Origin: Candidatus Woesearchaeota archaeon
GTDB lineage: Archaea > Nanobdellota > Nanobdellia > Woesearchaeales > JABGXB01
NCBI GenBank assembly: GCA_018675975.1
Contig: JABGXB010000002.1
Coordinates: forward strand, 192,098 to 256,097
Length of the DNA: 64,000 nt
Direction: 5' to 3'
Of the stretch, positions 14,963 to 56,197 are shown piece by piece (positions within the stretch are counted from its first letter, which is position 1; every line of letters begins with the position of its first letter). A program made the position numbers and the translations under genes. The notes below the pieces were generated by a model that worked only from the letters and a program-made list of their open reading frames with translations, did not search any database and had not been told where the DNA came from.

Positions 14963-16978
14963 TTAAAAAAAACTAAATAATCTTAAAAAAGTGTCGACGA
15001 TTCTAGTAAATAATCCTTTTTCAACACTAATTACTACTTCATCTTTAACTTGATATTTTTTACCATCAGCATCTTCATAATCAATTAATAATAATAATTT
15101 ATTTTCACCATGTAAAATTTCATTTCCATTAATATATAAATTCATTTTTTGATTTTTATCATAGGTTTCAAAATCCCATTTATTTAAATAATTATTTTTA
15201 TTCCAATTTAAATTATATAATTTAATTTGAACATTTTTAGGATTATTTTCAGATAATTTATTTATTTGAAATGTTATCAAATTATTATTAAGATCATAAT
15301 TAACTTTTTCTTTAACATATAATTTTGGACTTTCTCCTATGTTTAAATAAACTGTATCTTTTGAAATATCTCCATTATTTTTTATAAAAAAATTAATTTG
15401 TTTTCTACCTGGATTACTATTTTCAAAATTAAAAGTCTTTTCTTGAAGTTTATTTTCAGGATAAAGAATAGACTTACAATTATTTTCCGTACAAAATGTC
15501 AATACTGGACTTTCAAGTTTACTACTAATATCACAATTTATTTTAATATCATCACTATCTTTATAATCATATTTTTGACTATAACAATAAAGTTCTAATT
15601 TTCCATTATTTGATGTCTCAACTGAATTACTTGAAATTCTATCAATTACTTTTGATTTTTCTATATTACTAAATGAACTTTTTGCAGTAATTAAAATTTC
15701 AGCTTTATCATTTAATTGTGTATATACCACTAAAGGAATTTTGTATATATAATCTTCATCCAATCCAGATTGAGTTTTTATCATAAAATATACTTTCTTT
15801 TGTTCTAATGGTTTTAATATAACTGCTCTATGATTACCATCAGTTAAATTTAATATATCTGAATATGTTAAATAAACATCATAAGTCCTATAAAAATTAT
15901 CATTATTTTTCACATCAACTTCAATTAAATTATATGAATTTAATCCAACATTTTGTTCCATTGCATTTGCAGTTACACTTACACCATCAATAACAATATT
16001 TCCTTTATCAGAACTATCTACTTGAATTGTCATTGGATCAATTTTTAATTCTACATTATTATTTAACCATTTAAAATTACTTGTACTTTCTGAAGAATCC
16101 ACAGACTCTTTAAATTTTATATGAGTGGCATCTAAAAAACCAAATTCATGATAAGTTATATCAAAAGGAACCCAACCATATTTATCAAAATAAACTTCAG
16201 CCCATGCATGAGGCCCCCAATTATTTAAATCATTAAAATTAGTATAAGCCATACCAGAAATATAACGTGCAGGTACACCTTGACTTCTAAGCATTGCTAT
16301 AAATAAACTTGTAAGTTCATCACAAACACCATTACCATTTTTTAAAACCCAACTACTTTTTTGTGTTGTTTTTTCTGTAAGAGAATTTAATGAATATTCT
16401 ATATTTTCTTCCACCCAAGTTGCAATTTTACTTACAACTATAAATAAATCATCTTCGCCTTTAACTAATTCATTTGCTTTTTTTTTAATAGATTCATCAT
16501 TTGAATCTATATTTTTAGTTTCACGAGTATATTTTAAAATATCAGGATTAGTTACGACAAAAGGAAAAGGTATTTTACTTCTTATTCTTGGTTGAATAAA
16601 ATTAGTTTTTACAACTGAATCAATTCCAACTTGATAATTAGTTTTTTTTATACCTTTAATTTTAAAAATTGCACTTTTATCATCAAAACTTGTTTCAATA
16701 TTATTTGGAAATAAACTAAATTGTTTTATCTCTTGAAAATCTGAGTTTAATGGAATAAATGATTGATTAATTTCCAATAATTCAAGTTTTGGATTATCAC
16801 CTTCTATAATTAAATCAATATTAGTGCTAGTTTTTATATTCAATAACATTGACTCTAAATTAACTAATTCATTAATTAAATCAGGATCTAATTCTTCAGT
16901 AATTCCACTCTCTTCAGCTGAAGAAAAAAAAGCACATAAAAAGGTTATTAAAAATAATAATAAAAATCTCATCTTCAT
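14963..16978 (-). CDS. Secreted transglutaminase-like (Cys-His-Asp) domain protein
   Basis: N-terminal signal peptide; transglutaminase core GNGVCDELTSLFIAMLRSQGVPARYISG...GPHAWAEVYF...WVPFD. Confidence 0.75.
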   Translation of the reverse strand: MKMRFLLLFLITFLCAFFSSAEESGITEELDPDLINELVNLESMLLNIKTSTNIDLIIEGDNPKLELLEINQSFIPLNSDFQEIKQFSLFPNNIETSFDDKSAIFKIKGIKKTNYQVGIDSVVKTNFIQPRIRSKIPFPFVVTNPDILKYTRETKNIDSNDESIKKKANELVKGEDDLFIVVSKIATWVEENIEYSLNSLTEKTTQKSSWVLKNGNGVCDELTSLFIAMLRSQGVPARYISGMAYTNFNDLNNWGPHAWAEVYFDKYGWVPFDITYHEFGFLDATHIKFKESVDSSESTSNFKWLNNNVELKIDPMTIQVDSSDKGNIVIDGVSVTANAMEQNVGLNSYNLIEVDVKNNDNFYRTYDVYLTYSDILNLTDGNHRAVILKPLEQKKVYFMIKTQSGLDEDYIYKIPLVVYTQLNDKAEILITAKSSFSNIEKSKVIDRISSNSVETSNNGKLELYCYSQKYDYKDSDDIKINCDISSKLESPVLTFCTENNCKSILYPENKLQEKTFNFENSNPGRKQINFFIKNNGDISKDTVYLNIGESPKLYVKEKVNYDLNNNLITFQINKLSENNPKNVQIKLYNLNWNKNNYLNKWDFETYDKNQKMNLYINGNEILHGENKLLLLIDYEDADGKKYQVKDEVVISVEKGLFTRIVDTFLRLFSFF

Positions 16979-19297: not shown

Positions 19298-19927
19298 TCA
19301 AAAAAATATTTTAAATAAAATAAAAAATACAATAAATATAATTATTATATAAAAGATTTTAGAATTATTATTAATAGCATTAGTAAAATTATCCAAATAA
19401 GATTCTTCTTTATTAGAAGCTTCCAATTTTTCAACCATATCAATATTATTATTTTGTTCTACATTTACATTTTGAAAATAAATTCCTTTTGCAGATTCAC
19501 AATAAAATCCATAACTACAAAAATAATCTGATATATACTCATTAAAATTTACAATATCAACTCTATCCTTTTTTCTTTCAATATTAAAAGGAGAATTTGA
19601 ATCTAAATTTAAAACTATATCTCTACCAGCCCTAAAAAAATTAAGTTTCATTTCATCAGCCATAATTAAAGCAGGGTCTTCAGTCATTTCACCAATATCA
19701 ATATATTGAATTTTTTCATATTTTTTCCCATCAGGGCTTGCCAAATAATAAGTTATTACATTATCAATATATTCAATTTTAATTATATATAAATCCGAAT
19801 TGATTGAAACTTCAAAAACATCATTATTTGTAATATTTGTAGCCTGATAATTTTTATCAATACTTTCAGCATTAATTGAAAATAAAGAAATCATTAATAT
19901 AAATAAAAACAATAAATATTTTCTCAT
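19298..19927 (-). CDS. Secreted protein with C-terminal membrane anchor, function unknown
   Basis: Signal peptide MRKYLLFLFILMISLFSINA and a hydrophobic C-terminal tail. Confidence 0.45.
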   Translation of the reverse strand: MRKYLLFLFILMISLFSINAESIDKNYQATNITNNDVFEVSINSDLYIIKIEYIDNVITYYLASPDGKKYEKIQYIDIGEMTEDPALIMADEMKLNFFRAGRDIVLNLDSNSPFNIERKKDRVDIVNFNEYISDYFCSYGFYCESAKGIYFQNVNVEQNNNIDMVEKLEASNKEESYLDNFTNAINNNSKIFYIIIIFIVFFILFKIFF

Positions 19928-31610: not shown

Positions 31611-32174
31611 TTAAATTTTACCAACTAAATCTAAACCTGGCTTTAAAGTTTTATCTCCTGGTTTCCATTGGCACGGTGCAACTTCACCTTTATGTTCTCT
31701 CACATATTGAGCAGCTTGAATTTTTCTTATTAATTCATTAATATCCCGTCCAATACTATTTTCATGCAATTCATATGCTTTTAAAATTCCATCTGGATCA
31801 ATAATAAAACTACCTCTCCAAGATAATCCCTCATCATCAATATATGTACCATAATCACGACAAACTTGTCCAGTTGGATCTGCACCCATAAAGAACCTTA
31901 TTTTTTGAATAGTAGGTGAATTATCAAACCAAGCTTTATGCACAAAAGCAGTATCTGTACTTAGAGAAATAACTTCAGTATTCATTTCTTTTAATTTTTG
32001 ATATGAATCCGCCAATTCACCTAATTCAGTTGGACAAATAAAAGTAAAATCTGCAGGATAAAAAAATAATACAACCCATTTTCCTTTAAAATCAGAAAGA
32101 GAAATATTTTTTATTTCATTATTATAAAATGCTTTAATATTAAAATTTGGTGCTAACTTATTTATTTCTACCAT
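31611..32174 (-). CDS. Peroxiredoxin (AhpC/TSA family, 2-Cys type)
   Basis: Peroxidatic Cys motif FTFICPTE and C-terminal resolving-Cys region (EVAPCQW). Confidence 0.9.
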   Translation of the reverse strand: MVEINKLAPNFNIKAFYNNEIKNISLSDFKGKWVVLFFYPADFTFICPTELGELADSYQKLKEMNTEVISLSTDTAFVHKAWFDNSPTIQKIRFFMGADPTGQVCRDYGTYIDDEGLSWRGSFIIDPDGILKAYELHENSIGRDINELIRKIQAAQYVREHKGEVAPCQWKPGDKTLKPGLDLVGKI

Positions 32175-32216: not shown

Positions 32217-32768
32217 TCAATCAAAGACCCATTTTTTAATAAAATAAAAAAGCAAAAATAAAAATGTAATACTAGTAACATAATACATCACATAAGAATA
32301 ATTTTTTTGTTCAAGTAATACCATACCATAAAATAATGCAAGGGCTAAAAAAATCAATACAAAAATTTTTGCATAATTTGCATATGTACTACTAGTTATT
32401 TTTCTATTATTTAGCAAATAAGATAAAACTAATAATGCAACTCCAAACAAAATTGCAGTTTCAAATATACCACCTAAAAAATTAATTAAAAAAATACTTG
32501 GATTAACTACACCAGACAAAAAACCACTTTGATAATATAAATTATCATCTTTAAATGCAATTGAAGGCAATACAAATACTGTAACTAAAATTATAATTAA
32601 AGTCATTATATGACTTTTTTTAATATTTTTTAAACCAGGATATTTTTCATTAGAAATTAAATACATTATATATAAAATAATAAAAAATCCTAAACCAGTA
32701 AGTAAAATTAAGGCTAAAGTTTTATCTGCATTTAATAATGGATTAATTATATCTTCAAACCGTATCAT
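32217..32768 (-). CDS. Small polytopic membrane protein, paralog 1 of a tandem family of four
   Basis: Four predicted TM segments; shares the [YF]Q[ST]GFL[ST]GV[IV]NP loop motif with neighbours. Confidence 0.55.
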   Translation of the reverse strand: MIRFEDIINPLLNADKTLALILLTGLGFFIILYIMYLISNEKYPGLKNIKKSHIMTLIIILVTVFVLPSIAFKDDNLYYQSGFLSGVVNPSIFLINFLGGIFETAILFGVALLVLSYLLNNRKITSSTYANYAKIFVLIFLALALFYGMVLLEQKNYSYVMYYVTSITFLFLLFYFIKKWVFD

Positions 32769-32770
32769 TA

Positions 32771-33379
32771 TTAATCAAAAAAAATATATTTAAATACATA
32801 ATATATTACAATCAATCCCAATATCGATCCAAATATATTTACAAATTCATTTATATTACCAACTATGTTTGTTGCTCTTAAAAATACTAGAACTACAAAT
32901 GCAACCATAAACCAACCAACTATTTCCCAAGTATTAAAACCCTTTACTTTTGTAGCATTTAAATCAAAATTAGTAGTTCCTTTAATTACAATTAATGAAA
33001 ATAATGCAATAATAACTGCAAGTGAAATTGCAGGAAGACTATTCATAACAACATGAACTGGATTTATTACACCAGTTAAAAAACCTTCAACAAATACACC
33101 CTTTCCATTAGTACTAAAAACAAAATTTGGAACAGTTCCAACTAATGCAATAATAACTGAAATTATAGTAGTAAAACGTCCGTAAGCTTTTTCTTTTTCT
33201 GCTTTATTTGTATCATTATCTTCAATTTTCCACAGTTTCATATTAGAAATTAAAACATAAGGAATTATGTAAAATAGGAAAAACGGAATAAAAAAATGAA
33301 GTAAACCCCATTCTTTTGTAAAATAACAAATCCACTCCTTATATAAAGAGTTTGAATCGCAAACTATATCATTTAACAT
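32771..33379 (-). CDS. Small polytopic membrane protein, paralog 2
   Basis: Same topology; motif FVEGFLTGVINPV; C-terminal ...IFFD. Confidence 0.55.
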   Translation of the reverse strand: MLNDIVCDSNSLYKEWICYFTKEWGLLHFFIPFFLFYIIPYVLISNMKLWKIEDNDTNKAEKEKAYGRFTTIISVIIALVGTVPNFVFSTNGKGVFVEGFLTGVINPVHVVMNSLPAISLAVIIALFSLIVIKGTTNFDLNATKVKGFNTWEIVGWFMVAFVVLVFLRATNIVGNINEFVNIFGSILGLIVIYYVFKYIFFD

Positions 33380-34047
33380 TAAACATTACCTCCAGGTGCG
33401 CCAGCAGGTGGAGTTGTTGCAGTTGGAGGTGTATTAGTTTCACCATCAAAAAACATTAAATAAAACATCCATCCAATAAATGCTAAAAATAAGATTCCAC
33501 CAATAAATTCTTGAGTTAAATATTTTGAACTATCTACAGTCTTTCCAATTACACTTGTATAAAAAATGTAAGTTAATGTTAATGCAATAAATCCAGCATA
33601 CCAAGGACTGTCCATTATAGTTTTAACAACATTATTATTATTACCAGAAGTTGCAGATTGTATTGCAATTAATGCTAAAACTGACATTATTAATACTAAA
33701 CTAACTTGAGGTAAAAATAAATAAACAACAGATACAACATCAGGAAAACCAGCTAAAAAACCAGTTTGAAATTCAACACTAGCTACAGTATTTGCATTAT
33801 TTCCCCAAATTACATGAGGGATAACTAATAATAATGCAAAACATAATGAAACTACTGTTCTAAACTTTTTTGCATTTTTACCACTAAGATCACCTTCAGT
33901 TACTTTTGGAATTTCAATAAAAGTAAGTAATGTATAAAATATAATATAAATTAAAAACAAAGGTATAAATAAATCGAATAAACCGTAATCGCCAATTAAA
34001 TCATTTCTTATAAAATTCTGTAAATTAAAATTTTCAAATCCTGCCAA
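33379..34047 (-). CDS. Small polytopic membrane protein, paralog 3, with Thr/Pro-rich C-terminal tail
   Basis: Same topology; motif EFQTGFLAGF; the GC-rich C-terminal tail TNTPPTATTPPAGAPGGNV is unusual for this genome. Confidence 0.55.
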   Translation of the reverse strand: MAGFENFNLQNFIRNDLIGDYGLFDLFIPLFLIYIIFYTLLTFIEIPKVTEGDLSGKNAKKFRTVVSLCFALLLVIPHVIWGNNANTVASVEFQTGFLAGFPDVVSVVYLFLPQVSLVLIMSVLALIAIQSATSGNNNNVVKTIMDSPWYAGFIALTLTYIFYTSVIGKTVDSSKYLTQEFIGGILFLAFIGWMFYLMFFDGETNTPPTATTPPAGAPGGNV

Positions 34048-34119
34048 ACCTTAAACCTCTTTTTTAATATATATATATTTCAGCAATATTGCTTTATAAA
34101 TGTTACCTTATCATTCAGT

Positions 34120-34692
34120 TTATTCTTTATCCCATGCACCATTCATCCATGCAACGGATGCAACTATTAATACAATTAAAATAATACCTGAAACTAAACC
34201 TGTTTGATATTGATAAAATAATTCATTCCAAATTATTGATAATACTGATGCTTGACCTTCTGCAGTTGAAATTGTAATTGCACCTAAGAATATTAATCCA
34301 ATAATAAAAAAAATTATCCAAATAATATATTTTGCACGATTATCTTTATATTTACCATGTTCATCTAATTCAAAATCAAACCAAGTTGATTCTTTTGAAA
34401 ATATACCGGCAGTCATCATGAATGCAATACCAGCAATTACTAATAATATTGTTTTTGCTAAAACTTCTTCTAAAATTCCAACTAAACTTGCACTTGCAAT
34501 AACAAAAAAACCAATACAAAATGCAACAATTGCATTTAGATTATCTTTTTTTTCACCAAGTACAGAAGTCTTTTCTAAAATTGCAAATGTAATTGCAAAT
34601 ACGATTAAGAACGGAAGAACTACATTGAAAAATCCTAAACCATCTAAAAAACTAATTACTTGACCAAAAGCAGTTGGAGCAACGTCTACCAT
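34120..34692 (-). CDS. Small polytopic membrane protein, divergent paralog 4
   Basis: Similar hydrophobicity pattern; YQYQTGLVSGII motif shifted towards the C-terminus. Confidence 0.5.
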   Translation of the reverse strand: MVDVAPTAFGQVISFLDGLGFFNVVLPFLIVFAITFAILEKTSVLGEKKDNLNAIVAFCIGFFVIASASLVGILEEVLAKTILLVIAGIAFMMTAGIFSKESTWFDFELDEHGKYKDNRAKYIIWIIFFIIGLIFLGAITISTAEGQASVLSIIWNELFYQYQTGLVSGIILIVLIVASVAWMNGAWDKE

Positions 34693-34747: not shown

Positions 34748-35026
34748 TTATCCTAAAGCTCGACTAACTCCAGTAATTTCAACACCTCTAACATCTTCAA
34801 TATTAGAAATGTCTTGTTCAATTGGATCAGTTGATCCATTATCTTCATCAATTAAAAAATTAATTATAATAGCGTGAAGTCCAAATGCAATTGGTTCAAT
34901 TTGAAATTGTTCACCTTTTGCATCATACTTATTTAGAATTTGTTTAATTTGATCTTGAACATTAGTCAAATTAGTTTCAGGTGATTCTGGCATCACCTTC
35001 ATTTTAATTATTACTTTGGCTCCCAT
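34748..35026 (-). CDS. ef1b: Elongation factor 1-beta (aEF-1beta)
   Basis: About 90-aa protein with the characteristic KVMPESPE N-terminus and GLHAI segment. Confidence 0.8.
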   Translation of the reverse strand: MGAKVIIKMKVMPESPETNLTNVQDQIKQILNKYDAKGEQFQIEPIAFGLHAIIINFLIDEDNGSTDPIEQDISNIEDVRGVEITGVSRALG

Positions 35027-35211
35027 TATTCATCATCAATTGGAATTTTAAGGCCACAATTTGGACATTCTTTTATTGTTCCAAAAGATCTTTGCATACC
35101 AGTTCTTGTAATTTTTCCTGTATTACATTTAGGACAAACCATTGTAACTGCGGCATGATCATTAGAAAGTTCAGCTCTATACATATTGCTTTGTTCTACT
35201 TTTTCATTCAT
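35026..35211 (-). CDS. Zn-ribbon protein conserved upstream of ef1b in archaea
   Basis: Two CxxC pairs (CPKCN...CPNCG); stop overlaps the ef1b start. Confidence 0.7.
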   Translation of the reverse strand: MNEKVEQSNMYRAELSNDHAAVTMVCPKCNTGKITRTGMQRSFGTIKECPNCGLKIPIDDE

Positions 35212-39652: not shown

Positions 39653-40153
39653 ATGGAAGAAATAAATGAATTATATCAAAAAATAAAAGAATCTGATGAA
39701 TATAAAGAATTAGTGCAAAATAATCTATACCTAACAAATATATTTATTATGTTAGATGATAGCAATAATTTAATCGATAGAATACAATTTGGATTTTATA
39801 ATAAAGAAAAAGATAAAATAATAACCTTATCAATTCATGAAAATAAAATAATTAAAAGTCTAGAACAAGAAATTGCAAAAAAATCTGATCAAAAATTAGA
39901 AGAATTAAATATTGAAAATTTAAATATAAATTTGAATGAAATTGAAGAAATGTGTGTAAAAGAAATAAAAAAAATAAATGATAAAATTAAAATTAATAGA
40001 AAAATGTTCTTAATTCAAAATCAAGAAAAACCAATATTTCTAAATACATTTTTGGCTGAAGATGGAAATATATTTTCATTAAAAATTGATATTAGTACAA
40101 AAGAAATGTTAGAATTTAAAAAATTTAATGTAAAAGATTTAATTAATAATTAA
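39653..40153 (+). CDS. Hypothetical protein
   Basis: 166-aa ORF, no recognised motif. Confidence 0.45.
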   Translation: MEEINELYQKIKESDEYKELVQNNLYLTNIFIMLDDSNNLIDRIQFGFYNKEKDKIITLSIHENKIIKSLEQEIAKKSDQKLEELNIENLNINLNEIEEMCVKEIKKINDKIKINRKMFLIQNQEKPIFLNTFLAEDGNIFSLKIDISTKEMLEFKKFNVKDLINN

Positions 40154-40219: not shown

Positions 40220-41863
40220 TTGGTAGTCAGAAATAGTTTTAATAGTGAAACTAGAAGTTTAGATAATAATATTAATGAAAGAGTTAAATTTCACTCTGAA
40301 AATATAAAAAAAGCACAAGAATACAAACAACATGTAATTGATAATTGGAATTCTATAGATCATAAAGTAAAAAATCCAAATGAATGGATAAATTATTACA
40401 ATAGTGTAATTTCTTCAAATCAACAAAAAATAAATAATTTAAAACCACAAAATAAAAAAAAACCGGTTTTTGTATTTACTCTCATAGTAGCAATATTATT
40501 TTTTTCATATTTTATTTTACCACAAAATCAATTAACAGGTTCATTAATTGGAGATGAAATTAATTCCCCACTAGAAAATCAAATTGAATTTGAAATTCTA
40601 AACCCTCAATCATATCCAATTACAGGTAGAACTTGGCAAGTTAATTTTAAAACAAAAGGAACTGCAGATTTATTTATTAAAGCATCAAATGGAACAACTT
40701 GGTCTAAAAACAATGAAACTGAGGATTTATTATTTTTAAAAATTCAATGTGGATCAGAAATATTACCATATGAATGGGTTGATGGTGGAATTTTAATTAA
40801 AAATTATTCTTGTAATCAAACAAGTCATGAAACAGTTAAAGTAATTACAGATGGTAAACATACAATAGAATTTAGGTTTGGTAATTTAATTGCATATGCA
40901 AATAATAATGCAACTAATGCCCCAGTAATACATGCAATTAACTTAACTACTTCATACAATAGTGGAGAAAATGGAACTAATGAAAATATAACAGTAAATA
41001 TTTTTTCAAATGATACTGAAGTGCCAGATAATGAAGTAAAAGATATTATTGACTGGAGATTGTCAGGAGAATCTATAGCAATTTTAAATATGCCATTCGA
41101 AGGAGAAAGTAATGTAACTTTTACTAAAGATTATGGTGATTATCAATCAAATGGAACAGTTAATGGTGCAACTAATCAAACTAATACTGGTTTTGATGGA
41201 CAAGGTGCTTATAGTTTTGATGGAATTGATGATTTTATTAATATAAGTGGATTCACAACAGAAAATGAAGTTGTAAGATCAATTGGCTTTTGGTTTAAGC
41301 CTACAGTCGATTATGATACAACAAAAGGATTTGTATCTTTAGTTAATGGAGATGATTATGAAATTGCAATAAATGCAGGAAAAATGTTTTTTAATTTCTC
41401 AGGCGATACTGTTTATTCAACAATTGATAATTGGACTTCAGGTAATTTTTTTCACATCATGACAACAGTTGATATTAATTTAAAATTATATGTAAATGCA
41501 ACATTAGATAATTCAACAAGTGTTACACCTGCATATATAATTCAAAACGATACAAGTTCAAATGTAGCATTATTTTATAGCAGCGGTGATATTGTTCTTT
41601 CAGGATCCTGCTTTACAAACTCATGTGGAGATCCAGGAGTTTCACCATTTATTATACAAAATGCTACAAGTCATAATACAAGTTTTGTAAATCAAACAGG
41701 AGGATTTTGTATTACTGACAATAATTGTAATGATCAAGACTTATCTTGTGGTTCACCTAATGATGGATCATTTTTAATAAAAGATGAAGTTGGAACAATT
41801 GTATCATATATTGATGCAAATGGAACTTTATGCCTAACGGGAAATTTAGTACAAAATAATTGA
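40220..41863 (+). CDS. Type II membrane-anchored surface protein with LamG/concanavalin-like jelly-roll domain and many N-glycosylation sequons
   Basis: About 80-aa cytoplasmic N-terminus, one TM helix (PVFVFTLIVAILFFSYFIL), then LamG-like motifs (AYSFDGIDDFINISGF, SIGFWFKP, NWTSGNFFHIMTTVD, LKLYVNATLDNS) and dense N-x-S/T sites. Confidence 0.6.
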   Translation: MVVRNSFNSETRSLDNNINERVKFHSENIKKAQEYKQHVIDNWNSIDHKVKNPNEWINYYNSVISSNQQKINNLKPQNKKKPVFVFTLIVAILFFSYFILPQNQLTGSLIGDEINSPLENQIEFEILNPQSYPITGRTWQVNFKTKGTADLFIKASNGTTWSKNNETEDLLFLKIQCGSEILPYEWVDGGILIKNYSCNQTSHETVKVITDGKHTIEFRFGNLIAYANNNATNAPVIHAINLTTSYNSGENGTNENITVNIFSNDTEVPDNEVKDIIDWRLSGESIAILNMPFEGESNVTFTKDYGDYQSNGTVNGATNQTNTGFDGQGAYSFDGIDDFINISGFTTENEVVRSIGFWFKPTVDYDTTKGFVSLVNGDDYEIAINAGKMFFNFSGDTVYSTIDNWTSGNFFHIMTTVDINLKLYVNATLDNSTSVTPAYIIQNDTSSNVALFYSSGDIVLSGSCFTNSCGDPGVSPFIIQNATSHNTSFVNQTGGFCITDNNCNDQDLSCGSPNDGSFLIKDEVGTIVSYIDANGTLCLTGNLVQNN

Positions 41864-41872
41864 GGTTAAAAA

Positions 41873-43039
41873 ATGAATCAAAAAATAAAAATAACAAAAT
41901 TAGCATATTTAATTTTTGTATTTATTATTGTGAATACAATCATAATTAGTGCTGCGAATGTTATTGTAAAAAATGGAGAAATTACAGCAAATGATTTAGT
42001 AATTGATACAAGTACTGTATCAGTAGATCCAACAAATAATAGAGTTGGAATAGGAACGACCTCAGCTCAAACAACATTAGAAGTAGCAGATACTAGTTGG
42101 AGTAGTGGCGCACCTTATGGAAATATTTTACAAATTGCAGGTAAAGAAACATTTTTTAATGACAATTGGGGACATTTACTAATTACAGATTCAAATTCAA
42201 GTACCGGTAATGGTGGTATGATTAGTTTTGGTATCGGAAGAACAATAGGGGTTGATGTTGCACCATTTGCAACAATAAAATCATCGTATGATGGATCAAA
42301 TAATGGTTCATTAATTTTTATGACTAGAGGTGCAGGTGTAAATGTAACTGAAAGAATGAGAATTAATAGTGCCGGAGAAATAGGTATCGGCCTTACAGCA
42401 GCTACAAGTAATGCATTAGAAATTGGTGGAAATGGACAGGGTGGTGCAATAGGTGGCGGTTATGCCACAGTAATTAGAGGTTTAACTGCAATAGACGTTA
42501 ATTCAGGTTCAACAGCATTAACTGTTGAACAAGCAAATGTGGGAAATATTGCAACATTTAATGATGCAGGAACCCCTAAAGTAGTAATTTTAGATGGTGG
42601 TAATGTTGGAATTAATACAAGTGCACCAAGTGAATTTTTAGAAATAAATGGAAGATTAAAAGTTAATTTACTTGCAGCTGCAACTGCAAATACACTATGT
42701 TATAATAATACAGGAGTATTAAGTTCATGTACTTCATCCATAAAATATAAAGAAGATGTTCAAAATTTAACTAATGGATTAAATCATTTAAATCAAATGA
42801 GATCTGTTAATTATAAATGGAAAGGAAGAGACGAAAGAGATATTGGTTTTATTGCAGAAGAAATGAATGAAATTGATCCAATTTATGTAACACTAGATAA
42901 AAATGGAGATGTACAAGGTGTTAAATATAATTTATTAACTGCAGTACTCGCAAAAGCAATTCAAGAACAACAAAAACAAATAAATCAATTAAAAGAAATT
43001 GTTTGTTTAGATCACCCAGAACAAGAAATATGTAATTAA
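41873..43039 (+). CDS. Tail-fibre-like surface protein with C-terminal intramolecular chaperone auto-processing domain (Peptidase S74-like)
   Basis: N-terminal signal or anchor; fibre-type repeats (NRVGIGTTSAQTTLEV, GNVGINTSAPSEFLEINGRLKV); C-terminal SSIKYKEDVQNL...DIGFIAEEMNEIDPIYV...GVKYNLLTAVLAKAIQEQQKQINQLKE with a Ser-Lys dyad typical of endosialidase/tail-spike chaperone domains. Confidence 0.6.
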   Translation: MNQKIKITKLAYLIFVFIIVNTIIISAANVIVKNGEITANDLVIDTSTVSVDPTNNRVGIGTTSAQTTLEVADTSWSSGAPYGNILQIAGKETFFNDNWGHLLITDSNSSTGNGGMISFGIGRTIGVDVAPFATIKSSYDGSNNGSLIFMTRGAGVNVTERMRINSAGEIGIGLTAATSNALEIGGNGQGGAIGGGYATVIRGLTAIDVNSGSTALTVEQANVGNIATFNDAGTPKVVILDGGNVGINTSAPSEFLEINGRLKVNLLAAATANTLCYNNTGVLSSCTSSIKYKEDVQNLTNGLNHLNQMRSVNYKWKGRDERDIGFIAEEMNEIDPIYVTLDKNGDVQGVKYNLLTAVLAKAIQEQQKQINQLKEIVCLDHPEQEICN

Positions 43040-43047
43040 AAAAAACA

Positions 43048-43746
43048 ATGAACTATAAAAAAATATTAGGATTTAGTATTTTAATTATATTATTTTTAAC
43101 TCCAAGTATAAATTCATTATTAGTTGGAGGAACAAGTGAAGGATATTATAATGGAATACTTGATGATTTAACCATATTTAATAGAGAATTATTTCCAGAT
43201 CAAATAACTTATTTTTTTAATAATCAAACAAATATATTAGCAAATGATCAAACATTAACAGGACAAAGTTGGAGTGCATGTGCAACACCAAATGATGGTT
43301 TTGTTGATGGTAATCAAAATTGTACAATAAGTATGACAATCCTTGGAATTACAACAGTACTTCAAATGGGAATCGCTAATGCAGATGTAACTTTTGTTGT
43401 AACACATACACAAAATACCAATTCCTCTCCTATGGTTTTATCTAATCAAGGGACAGCAGATATAGATGTAACATTATGTGCCAATGCGCCTCTTTTCCCG
43501 ACCATTGGCCTTAATACATCTAATTTTCAAGCAAATGTAATAACACCGGCAGGAGTTACAGTAAATTCAATTAATGCCAACCATAATTTATTAAATTGTA
43601 CAACACCAGTTCAAATCATTAATAATTTGAGTGCAGGAGTAGGACAATTAATTAATGTTACATTTTATGTATTTGGAAATAAAAGTGAATCTGCAGGAGT
43701 TTACAATACAAGTGTTTTATTCATGGCATCAGCTGCAGCAGGATAA
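43048..43746 (+). CDS. Secreted N-glycosylation-sequon-rich protein beginning with a LamG-closing-strand-like motif
   Basis: Signal peptide; GGTSEGYYNGILDDLTIFNRELFPDQI; at least nine N-x-S/T sites. Confidence 0.5.
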   Translation: MNYKKILGFSILIILFLTPSINSLLVGGTSEGYYNGILDDLTIFNRELFPDQITYFFNNQTNILANDQTLTGQSWSACATPNDGFVDGNQNCTISMTILGITTVLQMGIANADVTFVVTHTQNTNSSPMVLSNQGTADIDVTLCANAPLFPTIGLNTSNFQANVITPAGVTVNSINANHNLLNCTTPVQIINNLSAGVGQLINVTFYVFGNKSESAGVYNTSVLFMASAAAG

Positions 43747-53247: not shown

Positions 53248-54720
53248 TCAATTTATTTGATTTTTATCTAAAGATCTAATTTCACTCTTAAAAAATTCTT
53301 CTAAAAATATAGAAATAGATGAAAATTTGCTTAAAAGCTCAAAATAAGGCCTATTTAGGTTTTTAACAGATTTATCTACATCTAATATAGCCAAACCTAT
53401 TTTGTTTTCATTTATAGCAATATTTTGATTATGTTGAAGTTTTAATTTAGTTTCCATATCTCTAATAAATTTACTTATTCTTAACATATCTTCACTAGCA
53501 GGAATTTTTCTATTTAATATAAAATGAAAATTATTAATTATTAAACTTGCAATTACTTTAGTAGTTTTACTTGATTTGAATATTTTGTTATAATCAGGTT
53601 CCCCTTGTCTATCATAAGCATGTTTTAATATCAATAGTAAATCTAAATAACCAGAACCTTTTGTTTCAGTTCTAAATGGAATATCAATAACTTTAACTGA
53701 TAAAGGCTTTAATTTTTCTAAAAAAATTTTATCATGATCCCTCATTGCTTCATTAAAAAGATTTTCAAACGCCACATTATTAGGCTTAGCCATATATAAT
53801 TTTTGATAATTCATTTCCATTAATTTGTAATATCTTAACATTAAATCCAAATAAATTAAAAAATATACATTTTGATCTAATCTATGTGCACGAATTAATT
53901 TTACAGCAGAAGGCATAACACTCAATGAATTCCACATTCTGCCTAAAATAGTACTTTCAACATTATAACCCTCATGTCTAATTTCAGCATGAAGTTTTTT
54001 TAAATAAATATTTATTTTTCTATCAAATTCAATTGAATCTTTAATTTTATCTAAATTATCTTTAAATAAATTTAAACCAGAATTTAAATTTTCAACTAAT
54101 TGAAAATTAATTTTTGCTCTATCTTTGATATTATTATTATTTGAATTAGAAAATTTAACTATTTGCAAATTATATTCTTCAATTAATTTAGATAAGATAT
54201 AAATTTCTTTTTCTAATTGAATCATATTTAATTCACATTTATTAAATTCGATGTTAATTTCTGTTACTATGTTATTACCACGTGCTATAATGTCTTTATT
54301 TAAATCTTTTTTAATAAAATTTTGATTAGATTCAAAACTGTTTCCAGGAGCAAAATGTTCTGTTAGAAATTCAATTTCTTCTGAATCAATTATTAATATT
54401 GCTTTTGATACGGAATCCAAAATTTCACCAATTTTATTTAATACAAAAAAAATTGAATAAATTTGTTTTGAAAAATTATTTCTTGGCGTACTAATTACTC
54501 CACGATTTTGATCTAAAACATCACCAGATAATTTACTCATTGAAAAATCCATTTTATTTTCTGAATGTAAATATCTTGAAATTTGATCAGATTGTGATCT
54601 TAAAATAACTCCTAATTTTTTTAATTCAGAATCATTTTCTTCAAAATTTTTATTAACAATATGTTGAGTTGAACTAACATCACTTGAAATTTCACTTAAA
54701 TCCATATTTATAAAATGCAT
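53248..54720 (-). CDS. Large hypothetical protein (490 aa)
   Basis: Long ORF with normal composition, no recognised motif. Confidence 0.5.
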   Translation of the reverse strand: MHFINMDLSEISSDVSSTQHIVNKNFEENDSELKKLGVILRSQSDQISRYLHSENKMDFSMSKLSGDVLDQNRGVISTPRNNFSKQIYSIFFVLNKIGEILDSVSKAILIIDSEEIEFLTEHFAPGNSFESNQNFIKKDLNKDIIARGNNIVTEINIEFNKCELNMIQLEKEIYILSKLIEEYNLQIVKFSNSNNNNIKDRAKINFQLVENLNSGLNLFKDNLDKIKDSIEFDRKINIYLKKLHAEIRHEGYNVESTILGRMWNSLSVMPSAVKLIRAHRLDQNVYFLIYLDLMLRYYKLMEMNYQKLYMAKPNNVAFENLFNEAMRDHDKIFLEKLKPLSVKVIDIPFRTETKGSGYLDLLLILKHAYDRQGEPDYNKIFKSSKTTKVIASLIINNFHFILNRKIPASEDMLRISKFIRDMETKLKLQHNQNIAINENKIGLAILDVDKSVKNLNRPYFELLSKFSSISIFLEEFFKSEIRSLDKNQIN

Positions 54721-54736
54721 AATCTGATTTATAAAA

Positions 54737-56197
54737 TTAGCTATCTAATTTTGAAATTAATGACCTCATAACATTAAAATCAAGTCCAATTTGTTCAAAT
54801 TTTGTTGCATGTTTTGAATCAGCTCTTAACATTTCTAAACTTAAATTTGAAACATACCATAAAAATGTTTTTTCTTGTTTACAAAAATCTAATTCACTAT
54901 TTAATATAAAATTAGTATAATCCTTTAAATCAAATTCAAAACCCTTATGCTCAAAATATCTTTTTGAATATTTAAAATAATTTGAAAATATAAACATTTG
55001 ATAATTATAAAAATCATTAAATTGCATTTTTCTAAAATTATCATCACTATAATGTTGCATAAATTCACTTGCACCTTGTTTATAATTTTCAATTGATAAA
55101 AATCGACCTAATGGGGATTTCATTAATTTTTCTTTTAATTTTTTTGAATCAAAATTTTCATTTATATAATCATCTAAATAATCTATAAAATTAGAATCAG
55201 AATTATCTTTACCTTGAATATTCATAATGAATTTTGATAAATCTTTATCACAACCAGATATAATATTTTCATATAACATATTTAATTCAGTTTGAGATTC
55301 AAATTTAAAAAAAGAATTTAAATAATTTTCATTATCAATAATTAAAAATCTAAGTGCATTTAAAAAAATTTCAAATCTCATCTCTTTTTCATTTAAATCG
55401 TTTGGCAAAATCCATTCAAAATTGGTTTTTGAATCAAATAAAAAATTCAATCTATAATTAATTGCAGATGCGCTATATTTGTATAATTTTTCAACTCTTG
55501 ATTTTGATAAAATTGAAAGTGAAGATAATTCATAAATTTGTTTTAAATCTCCACTAACTGAATTATTTTGATTACCTTTAAAAATTGAAAATGATTGTTC
55601 TAAATTATTTTTATCTAATACAAGTGGACGCTCATATAATTTTGAACCAGTTTCAATTGTATATCTAATTATTTTTTCTGCATAACTTTGATATGGTTTT
55701 GAAAAAAAAATATATTGATTTGAATTTTTAAGTGTAGGAGAAAAATTAATATCATATTCCCTTGAAAATAATAAACTAAAATAAATATCCATTTCTTTTT
55801 TTAATTGCTTTAATAATAATTTATTATTTTCAAAATAATCACTATTTAATTCAATATTAATATCAATATCACTTTCGCCCATAGCAATGCCGTTAATAAT
55901 TTCACATAAATCATATTCATTTTTTGATTGTTGAATAGAACCAAAAAAATAAATTGAACTAATATTGGATTTAAATTCATCTAATGAATTAGATGATATT
56001 CGTTTAATGGAAGTTACATAATCCTTAAAGTCAATAGAAGGATTTTGTGATTTAATAAAAATTAAATTATTATCTAAAGAATCACCTAAAGAAAAAAATA
56101 AGTCTAATGCTTTTTTTGTTTGCACTTCATAAAAATTACTTATATTTATTTTTTCTGATGATAAATCACTAGATAAATTAATTTGAGGAAATTCCAT
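54737..56197 (-). CDS. Large hypothetical protein (486 aa) with a possible nucleotidyltransferase-like GS...SDIDINIE segment
   Basis: YFFGSIQQSK...GESDIDINIEL loosely resembles the pol-beta-superfamily hG[GS]x(n)Dh[DE]h motif, but the spacing is atypical. Confidence 0.45.
   Translation of the reverse strand: MEFPQINLSSDLSSEKINISNFYEVQTKKALDLFFSLGDSLDNNLIFIKSQNPSIDFKDYVTSIKRISSNSLDEFKSNISSIYFFGSIQQSKNEYDLCEIINGIAMGESDIDINIELNSDYFENNKLLLKQLKKEMDIYFSLLFSREYDINFSPTLKNSNQYIFFSKPYQSYAEKIIRYTIETGSKLYERPLVLDKNNLEQSFSIFKGNQNNSVSGDLKQIYELSSLSILSKSRVEKLYKYSASAINYRLNFLFDSKTNFEWILPNDLNEKEMRFEIFLNALRFLIIDNENYLNSFFKFESQTELNMLYENIISGCDKDLSKFIMNIQGKDNSDSNFIDYLDDYINENFDSKKLKEKLMKSPLGRFLSIENYKQGASEFMQHYSDDNFRKMQFNDFYNYQMFIFSNYFKYSKRYFEHKGFEFDLKDYTNFILNSELDFCKQEKTFLWYVSNLSLEMLRADSKHATKFEQIGLDFNVMRSLISKLDS

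Follow-up and report, generated by a model that had tools for sequence, protein, structure and literature searches.

Four adjacent genes (D, C, B and A, in order of transcription) in a Candidatus Woesearchaeota archaeon may encode subunits of an integral-membrane complex specific to Woesearchaeota and Nanoarchaeota. The subunits would be anciently diverged paralogues of one fold, consisting of an N-terminal amphipathic helix and five transmembrane (TM) helices. In most relatives, three genes in an invariant order, here called pos1, pos2 and pos3, would encode the complex; in this lineage pos1 (D) and pos2 (C) would be retained, and the pos2-derived B and A appear to replace pos3. We propose that, embedded in the membrane, the complex acts as an accessory to a divergent machine that resembles type IV filaments. 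That machine would also contain a FlaI/CpaF-family ATPase with an N-terminal extension, a platform-like protein of ~730 aa and two coiled-coil proteins of the cytoplasm. To this reading as a whole, a hetero-oligomeric accessory of such a machine, we assign a probability of about 40%.

The window, the whole stretch of DNA analysed, covers 64 kb of contig JABGXB010000002.1 from a tiny marine archaeon with a genome of ~23% GC. ORF calling returned all four genes as real, co-directional and closely packed on the minus strand: D (34120..34692, 190 aa), C (33379..34047, 222 aa, with a TTG start), B (32771..33379, 202 aa) and A (32217..32768, 183 aa). The start of B overlaps the stop of C by one base and 2 nt separate B from A, while D and C are separated by an A/T-rich spacer of 72 nt (34048..34119, minus strand) with TTTATAAA and ATATATATATA stretches. 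Reading the spacer sequence also revealed a GAGGT 9 nt 5' of the TTG start of C, and the spacer may contain an internal promoter or ribosome-binding site. JGI and NCBI annotations contain the identical four genes, each as a "hypothetical protein" (NCBI MBT3408527-30, locus tags HOK68_02440-55); together with the ORF coordinates, they bear out an earlier note on this DNA that had described four same-strand genes for proteins of 183–222 aa, in tight pairs as now measured for C/B and B/A. The neighbours of the array in the window are housekeeping genes (EF-1beta, a zinc-ribbon protein, peroxiredoxin and RNA polymerase). C was identical in five further contigs compared.

The earlier note had taken the four proteins for paralogues, which holds at different depths for different members. 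B is plainly paralogous to C (BLASTP 4e-14, phmmer 1e-14), whereas all-vs-all BLASTP and phmmer comparisons detected no pairwise similarity of D to A, B or C. Kinship of D emerged from a family profile (A4) built from sequences outside the window, which was matched in hhalign by D (1.5e-12), C (2.1e-16 over 181 columns) and B (5.6e-13). HMMs of the subfamilies from relatives gave concordant assignments, with D matching pos1 (1.7e-44) and both C (3.6e-18) and B (6.4e-13) matching pos2. Thus D, C and B each significantly match a profile or HMM built solely from non-window sequences, and their homology is demonstrable by sequence comparison. By the same comparisons D is the pos1 orthologue, holding the first slot of the conserved three-gene array, C is the pos2 orthologue and B is a lineage-specific extra copy of pos2 type. 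With C as the only query, a word-index search for homologues retrieved nothing beyond C itself.

The placement of A, in the slot held by pos3 in relatives, is marginal. A was not detected by the outside profile (E 0.38) or the subfamily HMMs (E 0.025–3), and alone it matched a profile of B, C and P0005, the B orthologue of one relative (L090), at a marginal hhalign value of 2e-4. In that relative, P0005 is followed by an orthologue of A (5.6e-16), as B is followed by A here; the A type was found in these two places only, and near-identical sequences were all that the A-type alignment retrieved in a search. An A-type profile combining the two orthologues aligned with the B/C/P0005 profile in register (hhalign 6e-5). 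When an A-type HMM was searched against 4,669 ORFs, the best eight non-self matches were pos2-slot members (E 0.03–0.6), none of which was among the best eight in a reversed-database control. A also shares the length class of the family and has five hydrophobic segments. At the profile level, these data marginally place A as a pos2-like copy that has diverged very far. We rejected A as a pos3 orthologue, as its sole alignment to pos3 covers a short, out-of-register segment (residues 27–83 of A against 85–142 of pos3) and the A-type HMM favours pos2 proteins. A pos3 HMM run against the ORFs of the 64-kb window found family cross-hits only and no canonical pos3, and the ORF at 19298–19927, another pos3 candidate, is a signal-peptide surface protein outside the family. 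The window therefore departs from one gene per slot, holding pos1, pos2 and two pos2-like genes. Tandem amplification, as first suggested for the whole array, fits B and A as extra pos2-type copies but not the D/C split, which is, by sequence, ancient and orthologous throughout Woesearchaeota.

To place the array in its family, we examined synteny at 82 loci fetched from relatives. Exactly three same-strand members in the order pos1-pos2-pos3 were found at 73 of the 82 loci, with median intergenic distances of 11 and 9 nt and frequent overlaps. Four members were found at three loci (L006, L010 and L060); of these, L010 clearly has two pos2-type genes and keeps a recognisable pos3. Fewer than three members were present at six loci, five of which are truncated by a contig end. 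The three subfamilies are homologous to each other (hhalign 6e-38, 6e-22 and 2e-27), yet pos1, pos2 and pos3 each have their own conserved signature, which fits non-redundant subunits. D bears the family TM1 signature GLGFFNVVLPFLIVFAITFAILEKTSVLG and C retains the pos2 signatures VIPHV and FPDVV. The family was confirmed in at least 554 stretches of species-representative genomes, and the three-gene set is apparently single-copy per genome. Named lineages among the listed records (80 kept loci and at least 360 protein matches) were Woesearchaeota or Nanoarchaeota, except for some TPA records titled "uncultured Methanosarcinales". A viral or mobile origin of the array was dismissed, since no relatives were found in IMG/VR or among GenBank phages. 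Because the set comprises three diverged paralogues in fixed order, 1:1:1 and tightly spaced, the comparative data favour a hetero-oligomeric membrane complex, as the earlier note had supposed, and proteins of the pos1, pos2 and pos3 types probably assemble with one another.

Hydropathy of all four proteins and AlphaFold2 (AF2) models of C and D revealed an N-terminal helix and five TM helices, rather than the four TM helices first counted. The two models, of moderate confidence (pLDDT 72–74, pTM 0.54–0.59), have identical helix order, with helices at residues 8–18, 21–42, 50–66, 68–98, 119–138 and 165–185 in D and at 9–20, 22–43, 56–81, 104–133, 148–168 and 180–200 in C (pLDDT 72.5). We infer an N-out/C-in orientation, in which loops 2 and 4 would face outward and the cytoplasm would contain the C-terminal tails together with the TM1-TM2 loop, which is rich in Lys.

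A [YF]Q[ST]GFL[ST]G motif had been proposed to unite all four proteins. In three of them it lies in the TM2-TM3 loop: as YYQSGFLSGVVNP in A (32499..32537, minus strand; residues 78–90, between hydrophobic segments 2 and 3), as FVEGFLTGVINPV in B (33056..33094, minus strand; residues 96–108, placed by alignments and hydropathy) and as EFQTGFLAGF in C (33745..33774, minus strand; residues 92–101), where this loop, predicted to be extracytoplasmic, forms a small beta hairpin in the AF2 model. The look-alike in D, YQYQTGLVSGII (34180..34215, minus strand; residues 160–171), is instead at the boundary of loop 4 and TM5; its YQYQTGLVSG precedes TM5, a position non-homologous to that of the motif in A, B and C, and the TM2-TM3 loop of D is nearly absent in both the hhalign alignment and the AF2 model. 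Neither the wider family nor the closest orthologues of B and A carry the motif. C ends in a low-complexity tail, GETNTPPTATTPPAGAPGGNV (33382..33444, minus strand), which has low AF2 confidence and is predicted to be disordered and, by the positive-inside rule, cytoplasmic. The impression that this Thr/Pro tail is compositionally foreign did not survive codon analysis. Its GC content of 0.51 equals that expected for the peptide under local housekeeping codon usage (0.51) and its GC3 is 0.05, so the GC content is an effect of Pro, Thr, Ala and Gly content and not a sign of foreign DNA. Other pos2 proteins have variable tails too, either charged or Pro/Gly-rich.

The family was as unrecognisable in database searches as it had been by eye. 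Pfam and NCBIfam searches with the four proteins, 10 homologues and 83 family members yielded sub-threshold hydrophobic noise only, and the family matched nothing among PDB sequences by profile or among PDB and BFVD folds. In particular, no characterised transporter scored above the curated Pfam/NCBIfam thresholds and no fold match to a solved transporter was significant; likewise, no Pfam/NCBIfam homology to named type-IV-filament (TFF) components (FlaF/G/H/J, PilM/N/O, TadB/C or class III pilin) was found. Literature searches found no description of the pos1/pos2/pos3 family. The nearest likeness was to DUF2070 (PF09843), an uncharacterised, predicted membrane family of archaea whose proteins are ~3x longer than those of the array. 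Matches occurred in 18 of the 83 members (best E 5e-4), all below the curated cutoff and all within the N-terminal ~150 of 561 model positions. Distant homology of the 5-TM module to DUF2070 is possible on this sequence evidence; since DUF2070 is itself uncharacterised, such a match would bring no functional information. Three other candidates were set aside. First, a prepilin/preflagellin peptidase (Peptidase A24; FlaK/PibD) would show an A24 model match and two catalytic Asp in a GxGD-type motif, neither of which was found. Second, inspection of the N-termini argued against pilins, as they lack a basic n-region with a cleavage motif and D has no Lys/Arg before TM1. Third, one JGI label "EscS" and sub-threshold Bac_export_2 matches in 4 of 83 members do not constitute evidence of FliP/Q/R-type homology.

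The proposed tie to a filament-like machine comes from the genes directly downstream of the array in most relatives, which encode first two coiled-coil proteins (cc215 and cc150) and then a FlaI/CpaF-type ATPase with a large polytopic partner. cc215 was present at 61 of 71 loci with enough downstream DNA and the ATPase at 44 of 61 loci with enough flank. Unbiased neighbour clustering ranked them likewise, with cc215 at 63 loci, cc150 at 41 and the ATPase at 38 plus 4, compared to at most 31 for every housekeeping neighbour (AspRS 31, translin 28, an MBL-fold protein 21), and cc215 is still near the array at five rearranged loci (L014, L015, L046, L056 and L079). The ATPase, which bears a long N-terminal extension, matched Pfam T2SSE (1.5e-13), NCBIfam FlaI (8e-36) and TadA (6e-34), both under curated cutoffs, and the PDB entries of GspE (2oap, 3e-26), CpaF (1e-21) and FlaI (3e-12). 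For the polytopic partner (~730 aa), 6 of 14 members matched T2SSF weakly, a faint pointer to a platform-like protein; it has no PDB or NCBIfam match. cc215 and cc150 gave generic coiled-coil matches only, and no relatedness between the two was detected. No pilin, FlaH, FlaF/G or peptidase genes were among the recurrent neighbours. Because the coiled-coil genes run towards the array in convergent orientation, the two do not form one operon. Moreover, synteny in this clade also covers unrelated housekeeping genes, so part of the linkage between array and ATPase may be historical. We hold a functional link between the array and the ATPase module only tentatively.

If the ATPase adjacency is inherited gene order and nothing else, the array could encode a hetero-oligomeric transporter or channel that works on its own, for instance a 15–20-TM permease of paralogous 5-TM subunits for nutrient or ion uptake by a metabolically dependent DPANN cell. 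The array does move as a unit and can stand alone: homologues of cc215, cc150, the ATPase and the platform are all missing from the 64-kb window, and no ATPase genes are nearby at four loci of relatives (L032, L040, L052 and L085). The preservation of unrelated housekeeping neighbours suits this explanation as well, and a binding site could be built from the polar residues that pos2 conserves close to the outer face of the membrane (PH, D and N in PHV...DVVxIIN). We regard a transporter as somewhat unlikely.

The housekeeping flanks, seen in the window and on the upstream side in relatives, would also suit a core factor of the cell envelope or of membrane biogenesis that has no tie to filaments and acts in S-layer anchoring, lipid uptake or scrambling, or protein insertion. 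So would the breadth of the family and its apparently single-copy set, and the outward loops of pos3 proteins, rich in Thr, Gly and Ser, resemble those of glycosylated envelope proteins. We consider such a factor unlikely, as the family lacks similarity to YidC/DUF106, flippases and other known biogenesis families, and it would leave cc215, cc150 and the ATPase unexplained as the most conserved neighbours.

Lastly, a rapidly diversifying surface family, tandem-amplified for variation or host interaction, would accommodate the three strongly diverged pos2-type copies here (C, B and A), their common lineage-specific outward loop motif and the narrow distribution of the A type, but this "diversified surface component" of the earlier note is highly improbable given that copy number is nearly always three across the 82 loci, that each slot is strongly conserved as one orthologous subfamily across many genomes, that the bulk of each protein is membrane-buried by hydropathy and AF2, and that no relatives were found in viral or phage collections.

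The reading we prefer remains a hetero-oligomeric accessory of a type-IV-filament-like machine. More speculatively, and with distinctly less confidence, pos1, pos2 and pos3 might make up the membrane-borne core of a previously unrecognised apparatus that is confined to Woesearchaeota and akin to type IV filaments, with the two coiled-coil proteins, the ATPase and a highly diverged platform completing it. Such an apparatus could serve cell contact or uptake in these host-dependent DPANN archaea, and D-C-B-A would be a remodelled version with extra pos2 copies in place of pos3. Woesearchaeota are abundant, uncultured and metabolically dependent archaea whose genes are mostly unassigned. Here, four anonymous ORFs have become part of a defined family, so far without a Pfam or NCBIfam model, with three orthologous slots, a conserved architecture and reproducible genomic partners that include a secretion-type ATPase. 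The array is a testable candidate for a lineage-specific envelope machine and an example of subunit turnover, in which pos2 duplicates apparently stand in place of pos3. Even if the ATPase link is historical, the family would still rank among the better conserved membrane complexes specific to this group.

Among known systems, the array invites comparison with the type III export gate, in which FliP, FliQ and FliR (SctR/S/T) are small, related polytopic proteins encoded by tandem genes in fixed order that assemble as one hetero-oligomeric membrane complex and work with a secretion ATPase. The analogy would extend to the small related polytopic proteins and the fixed gene order; the systems differ in that no homology is detectable, the TM numbers are not the same and the ATPase is of the T2SSE family here compared to FliI there. 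VirB6/TrwI, the polytopic stalk protein of type IV secretion systems, is also among the closest known systems. Archaeal TFF loci differ from the array in three respects: its proteins have no sequence or fold similarity to named TFF components, they lack a consistent class III signal peptide, and the T2SSE-family ATPase and platform genes are absent from the 64-kb window. The accessible parts of a preprint describing such loci (bioRxiv 10.64898/2026.04.22.720090) and of Makarova et al. 2019 (PMC6393860) do not mention the array family; Makarova et al. report that divergence often defeats recognition of TFF components in DPANN archaea. The likeness to TFF loci such as "system 2", as described in the accessible parts of the preprint, lies in the position of the array in relatives, beside an N-terminally extended ATPase and a single large platform-like gene.

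The four minus-strand genes are arranged in the order D (34120-34692, 190 aa), C (33379-34047, 222 aa, with a TTG start), B (32771-33379, 202 aa) and A (32217-32768, 183 aa), in a window of ~23% GC. C and B share one base, with 2 nt separating B from A and 72 nt separating D from C; the array lies between a peroxiredoxin gene (31611-32174) and an aEF-1beta gene (34748-35026, minus strand). JGI and NCBI gene calls agree for all four genes, each labelled "hypothetical protein", and exact-sequence look-ups recovered the window sequence from MAGs of Candidatus Woesearchaeota archaeon and from contigs of Saanich Inlet metagenomes, the latter including one of 1.03 Mb. On the minus strand at 35026-35211, abutting aEF-1beta on its upstream side, is a gene for an HVO_2753-like zinc-ribbon protein of 61 aa. 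Both genes directly precede D and share its strand, so that D may have a transcript in common with translation-factor genes.

The earlier note's finding of a tandem array of related membrane proteins proved real, with several details mis-described. Among the four, only B and C matched each other significantly (BLASTP 4e-14); A and B were marginally similar, and D had no pairwise match to A, B or C. An exhaustive HMMER search of 1.84 billion cluster representatives with an A+B+C profile retrieved 17 relatives, exposing a wider family of 190-240-aa proteins with a strong TM1 signature (G-L-L-D-V-x-L-P-F-L-L-I-F-T...L-Q-K-T-K-V-L-G) that is better kept in D than in B or C. A profile built from outside sequences only detected C (2.1e-16), B (5.6e-13) and D (1.5e-12) and did not detect A (0.38). 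The one orthologue of A follows directly on that of B (P0005), on a relative's contig of 31% GC. A alone aligned to a B/C/P0005 profile at 2e-4, and the A-type profile did so in register at 6e-5. The eight best non-self matches of the A-type HMM among 4,669 ORFs were all second-slot family members, none of which appeared among the eight best matches in a reversed-database control. By these comparisons, D, C and B can be placed securely in the family and A is probably an extremely diverged copy.

Each protein has five hydrophobic segments by hydropathy, and in the AF2 models of both C (pLDDT 72.5) and D (74.2) five long helices come after an N-terminal one, so the 4-TM topology first proposed is wrong. 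The loop between TM1 and TM2 is rich in Lys and Arg, which suggests that the proteins are oriented N-out/C-in; loop 2 of A, B and C would then face the outside of the cell, and the C-terminal tails the inside. The motif [YF]Q[ST]GFL[ST]G, described as common to all four proteins, holds for loop 2 of A, B and C; D almost lacks loop 2 and its look-alike, YQYQTGLVSG, lies before TM5, so the four-way match is coincidental for D. GFL[ST]G is conserved neither across the family nor in the B and A orthologues. The Thr/Pro/Ala/Gly tail of C had been considered compositionally foreign. Its 51% GC, with 5% GC3, equals that expected for the peptide under local codon usage, ruling out foreign DNA, and second-slot proteins often end in variable, low-complexity tails.

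A profile word search yielded at least 360 related proteins, and a scan of species-representative genomes confirmed at least 554 stretches. Nearly all matches listed in the word search had no name or were called "hypothetical protein" (EscS and YajC are the labels of two JGI records), and their organism names, where given, were Woesearchaeota or Nanoarchaeota; among the loci from the genome scan, some TPA records are titled "uncultured Methanosarcinales archaeon". Many loci under the latter title (L018, L020, L023, L028, L031 and many other TPA loci) carry a typical Woesearchaeota array and neighbours, and the taxonomic label of these bins looks unreliable.

For 82 fetched loci we called ORFs ourselves and applied HMMs of our own. 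In 73 of them the family genes, all on one strand, numbered exactly three; three loci had four, the extra gene in one (L010) being clearly a second pos2-type copy, and six had fewer than three, five of them cut by a contig end. The three slots, pos1, pos2 and pos3, correspond to separate orthologous subfamilies, each marked by a signature of its own, that are mutually homologous (hhalign 6e-38, 6e-22 and 2e-27) and separated by median spacers of 11 and 9 nt. By slot HMMs, D and C are the orthologues of pos1 (1.7e-44) and pos2 (3.6e-18), and B is a duplicate of pos2 type (6.4e-13); A is nearest to pos2-type proteins, and no pos3 gene lies within the 64-kb window. The window array is a remodelled variant: pos1, pos2, pos2', pos2''.

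The family genes keep a fixed order and 1:1:1 stoichiometry, are tightly spaced and belong to subfamilies that diverged long ago, as would the subunits of an obligate hetero-oligomeric membrane complex; this is the reading we favour (probability about 0.6). Among the rival readings, an autonomous transporter or channel is rather unlikely, a core envelope or biogenesis factor is somewhat less probable still, and a diversifying surface family is very improbable. The proteins do not form a transporter of any known family.

Unbiased clustering of every flanking ORF ranked as neighbours of the array a ~215-aa coiled-coil protein (cc215, 63 loci), a ~150-aa coiled-coil protein (cc150, 41), a ~760-aa ATPase (38, plus 4 intein-containing versions), AspRS (31), translin (28), a ~735-aa polytopic protein (28) and an MBL-fold protein (21). 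Counting loci with enough downstream sequence, 61 of 71 have cc215 and 44 of 61 have the ATPase. The usual layout is the three-gene array, then cc215 and cc150 on the opposite strand, then the ATPase and its polytopic partner in the array's orientation; none of these four neighbours is in the window. Of the non-family genes near the array in the window, one alone is also found close to arrays in other loci: it encodes a 166-aa protein without a Pfam match (39653-40153, plus strand), with homologues no more than a few kb from the three-gene array in four other Woesearchaeota loci (L037, L043, L046, L064). About ten relatives (L017, L019, L024, L028, L036, L058, L067 and others; e.g. L067 10029-11384) encode a ~450-aa P-loop protein, in most of them between cc215 and cc150/ATPase, with a Walker A-like GKRGGGKS motif and a HerA/DUF87-like appearance by eye only. 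The ATPase reaches 1,260-1,410 aa in some relatives (L006 10560-14348; also L042, L075, L080), in L006 because it contains an intein bearing a LAGLIDADG homing endonuclease (Pfam).

Elsewhere in the window, three successive plus-strand genes (40220-43746) encode proteins of 547 aa (weak Laminin_G_3/ConA-like lectin domain), 388 aa (Peptidase_S74, a domain that serves endosialidase and tail-fibre proteins as intramolecular chaperone) and 232 aa (no match); in this archaeal genome they resemble a surface adhesin or tail-fibre-like module. A 671-aa transglutaminase-core protein (14963-16978, minus strand) and an Asn-rich protein of 209 aa that begins with a hydrophobic, signal-like segment and ends in a TM anchor (19298-19927, minus strand) are likely envelope proteins. 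Two large adjoining minus-strand ORFs of 490 and 486 aa (53248-56197), beside a thermosome gene, had no Pfam match at E <= 1e-4.

In the literature searched, we found no published description of this family, which is a lineage-specific, uncharacterised group of membrane proteins with a striking conserved three-slot organisation. Its association with a secretion-type ATPase module is suggestive and unproven. The ATPase belongs to the T2SSE/FlaI/CpaF family and 6 of 14 members of its polytopic partner have weak T2SSF matches. The most frequent neighbours point tentatively to a diverged type-IV-filament-like machine as functional partner. We regard this link as less likely than not because the linkage is convergent rather than operonic and is broken in the window and several relatives, because unrelated housekeeping synteny is also conserved in the clade, and because no homology to known filament components was found. 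Woesearchaeota are reported to carry and express fla-type genes (PMC11606122), and DPANN type-IV-pilus components are described as often diverged beyond recognition (PMC6393860).
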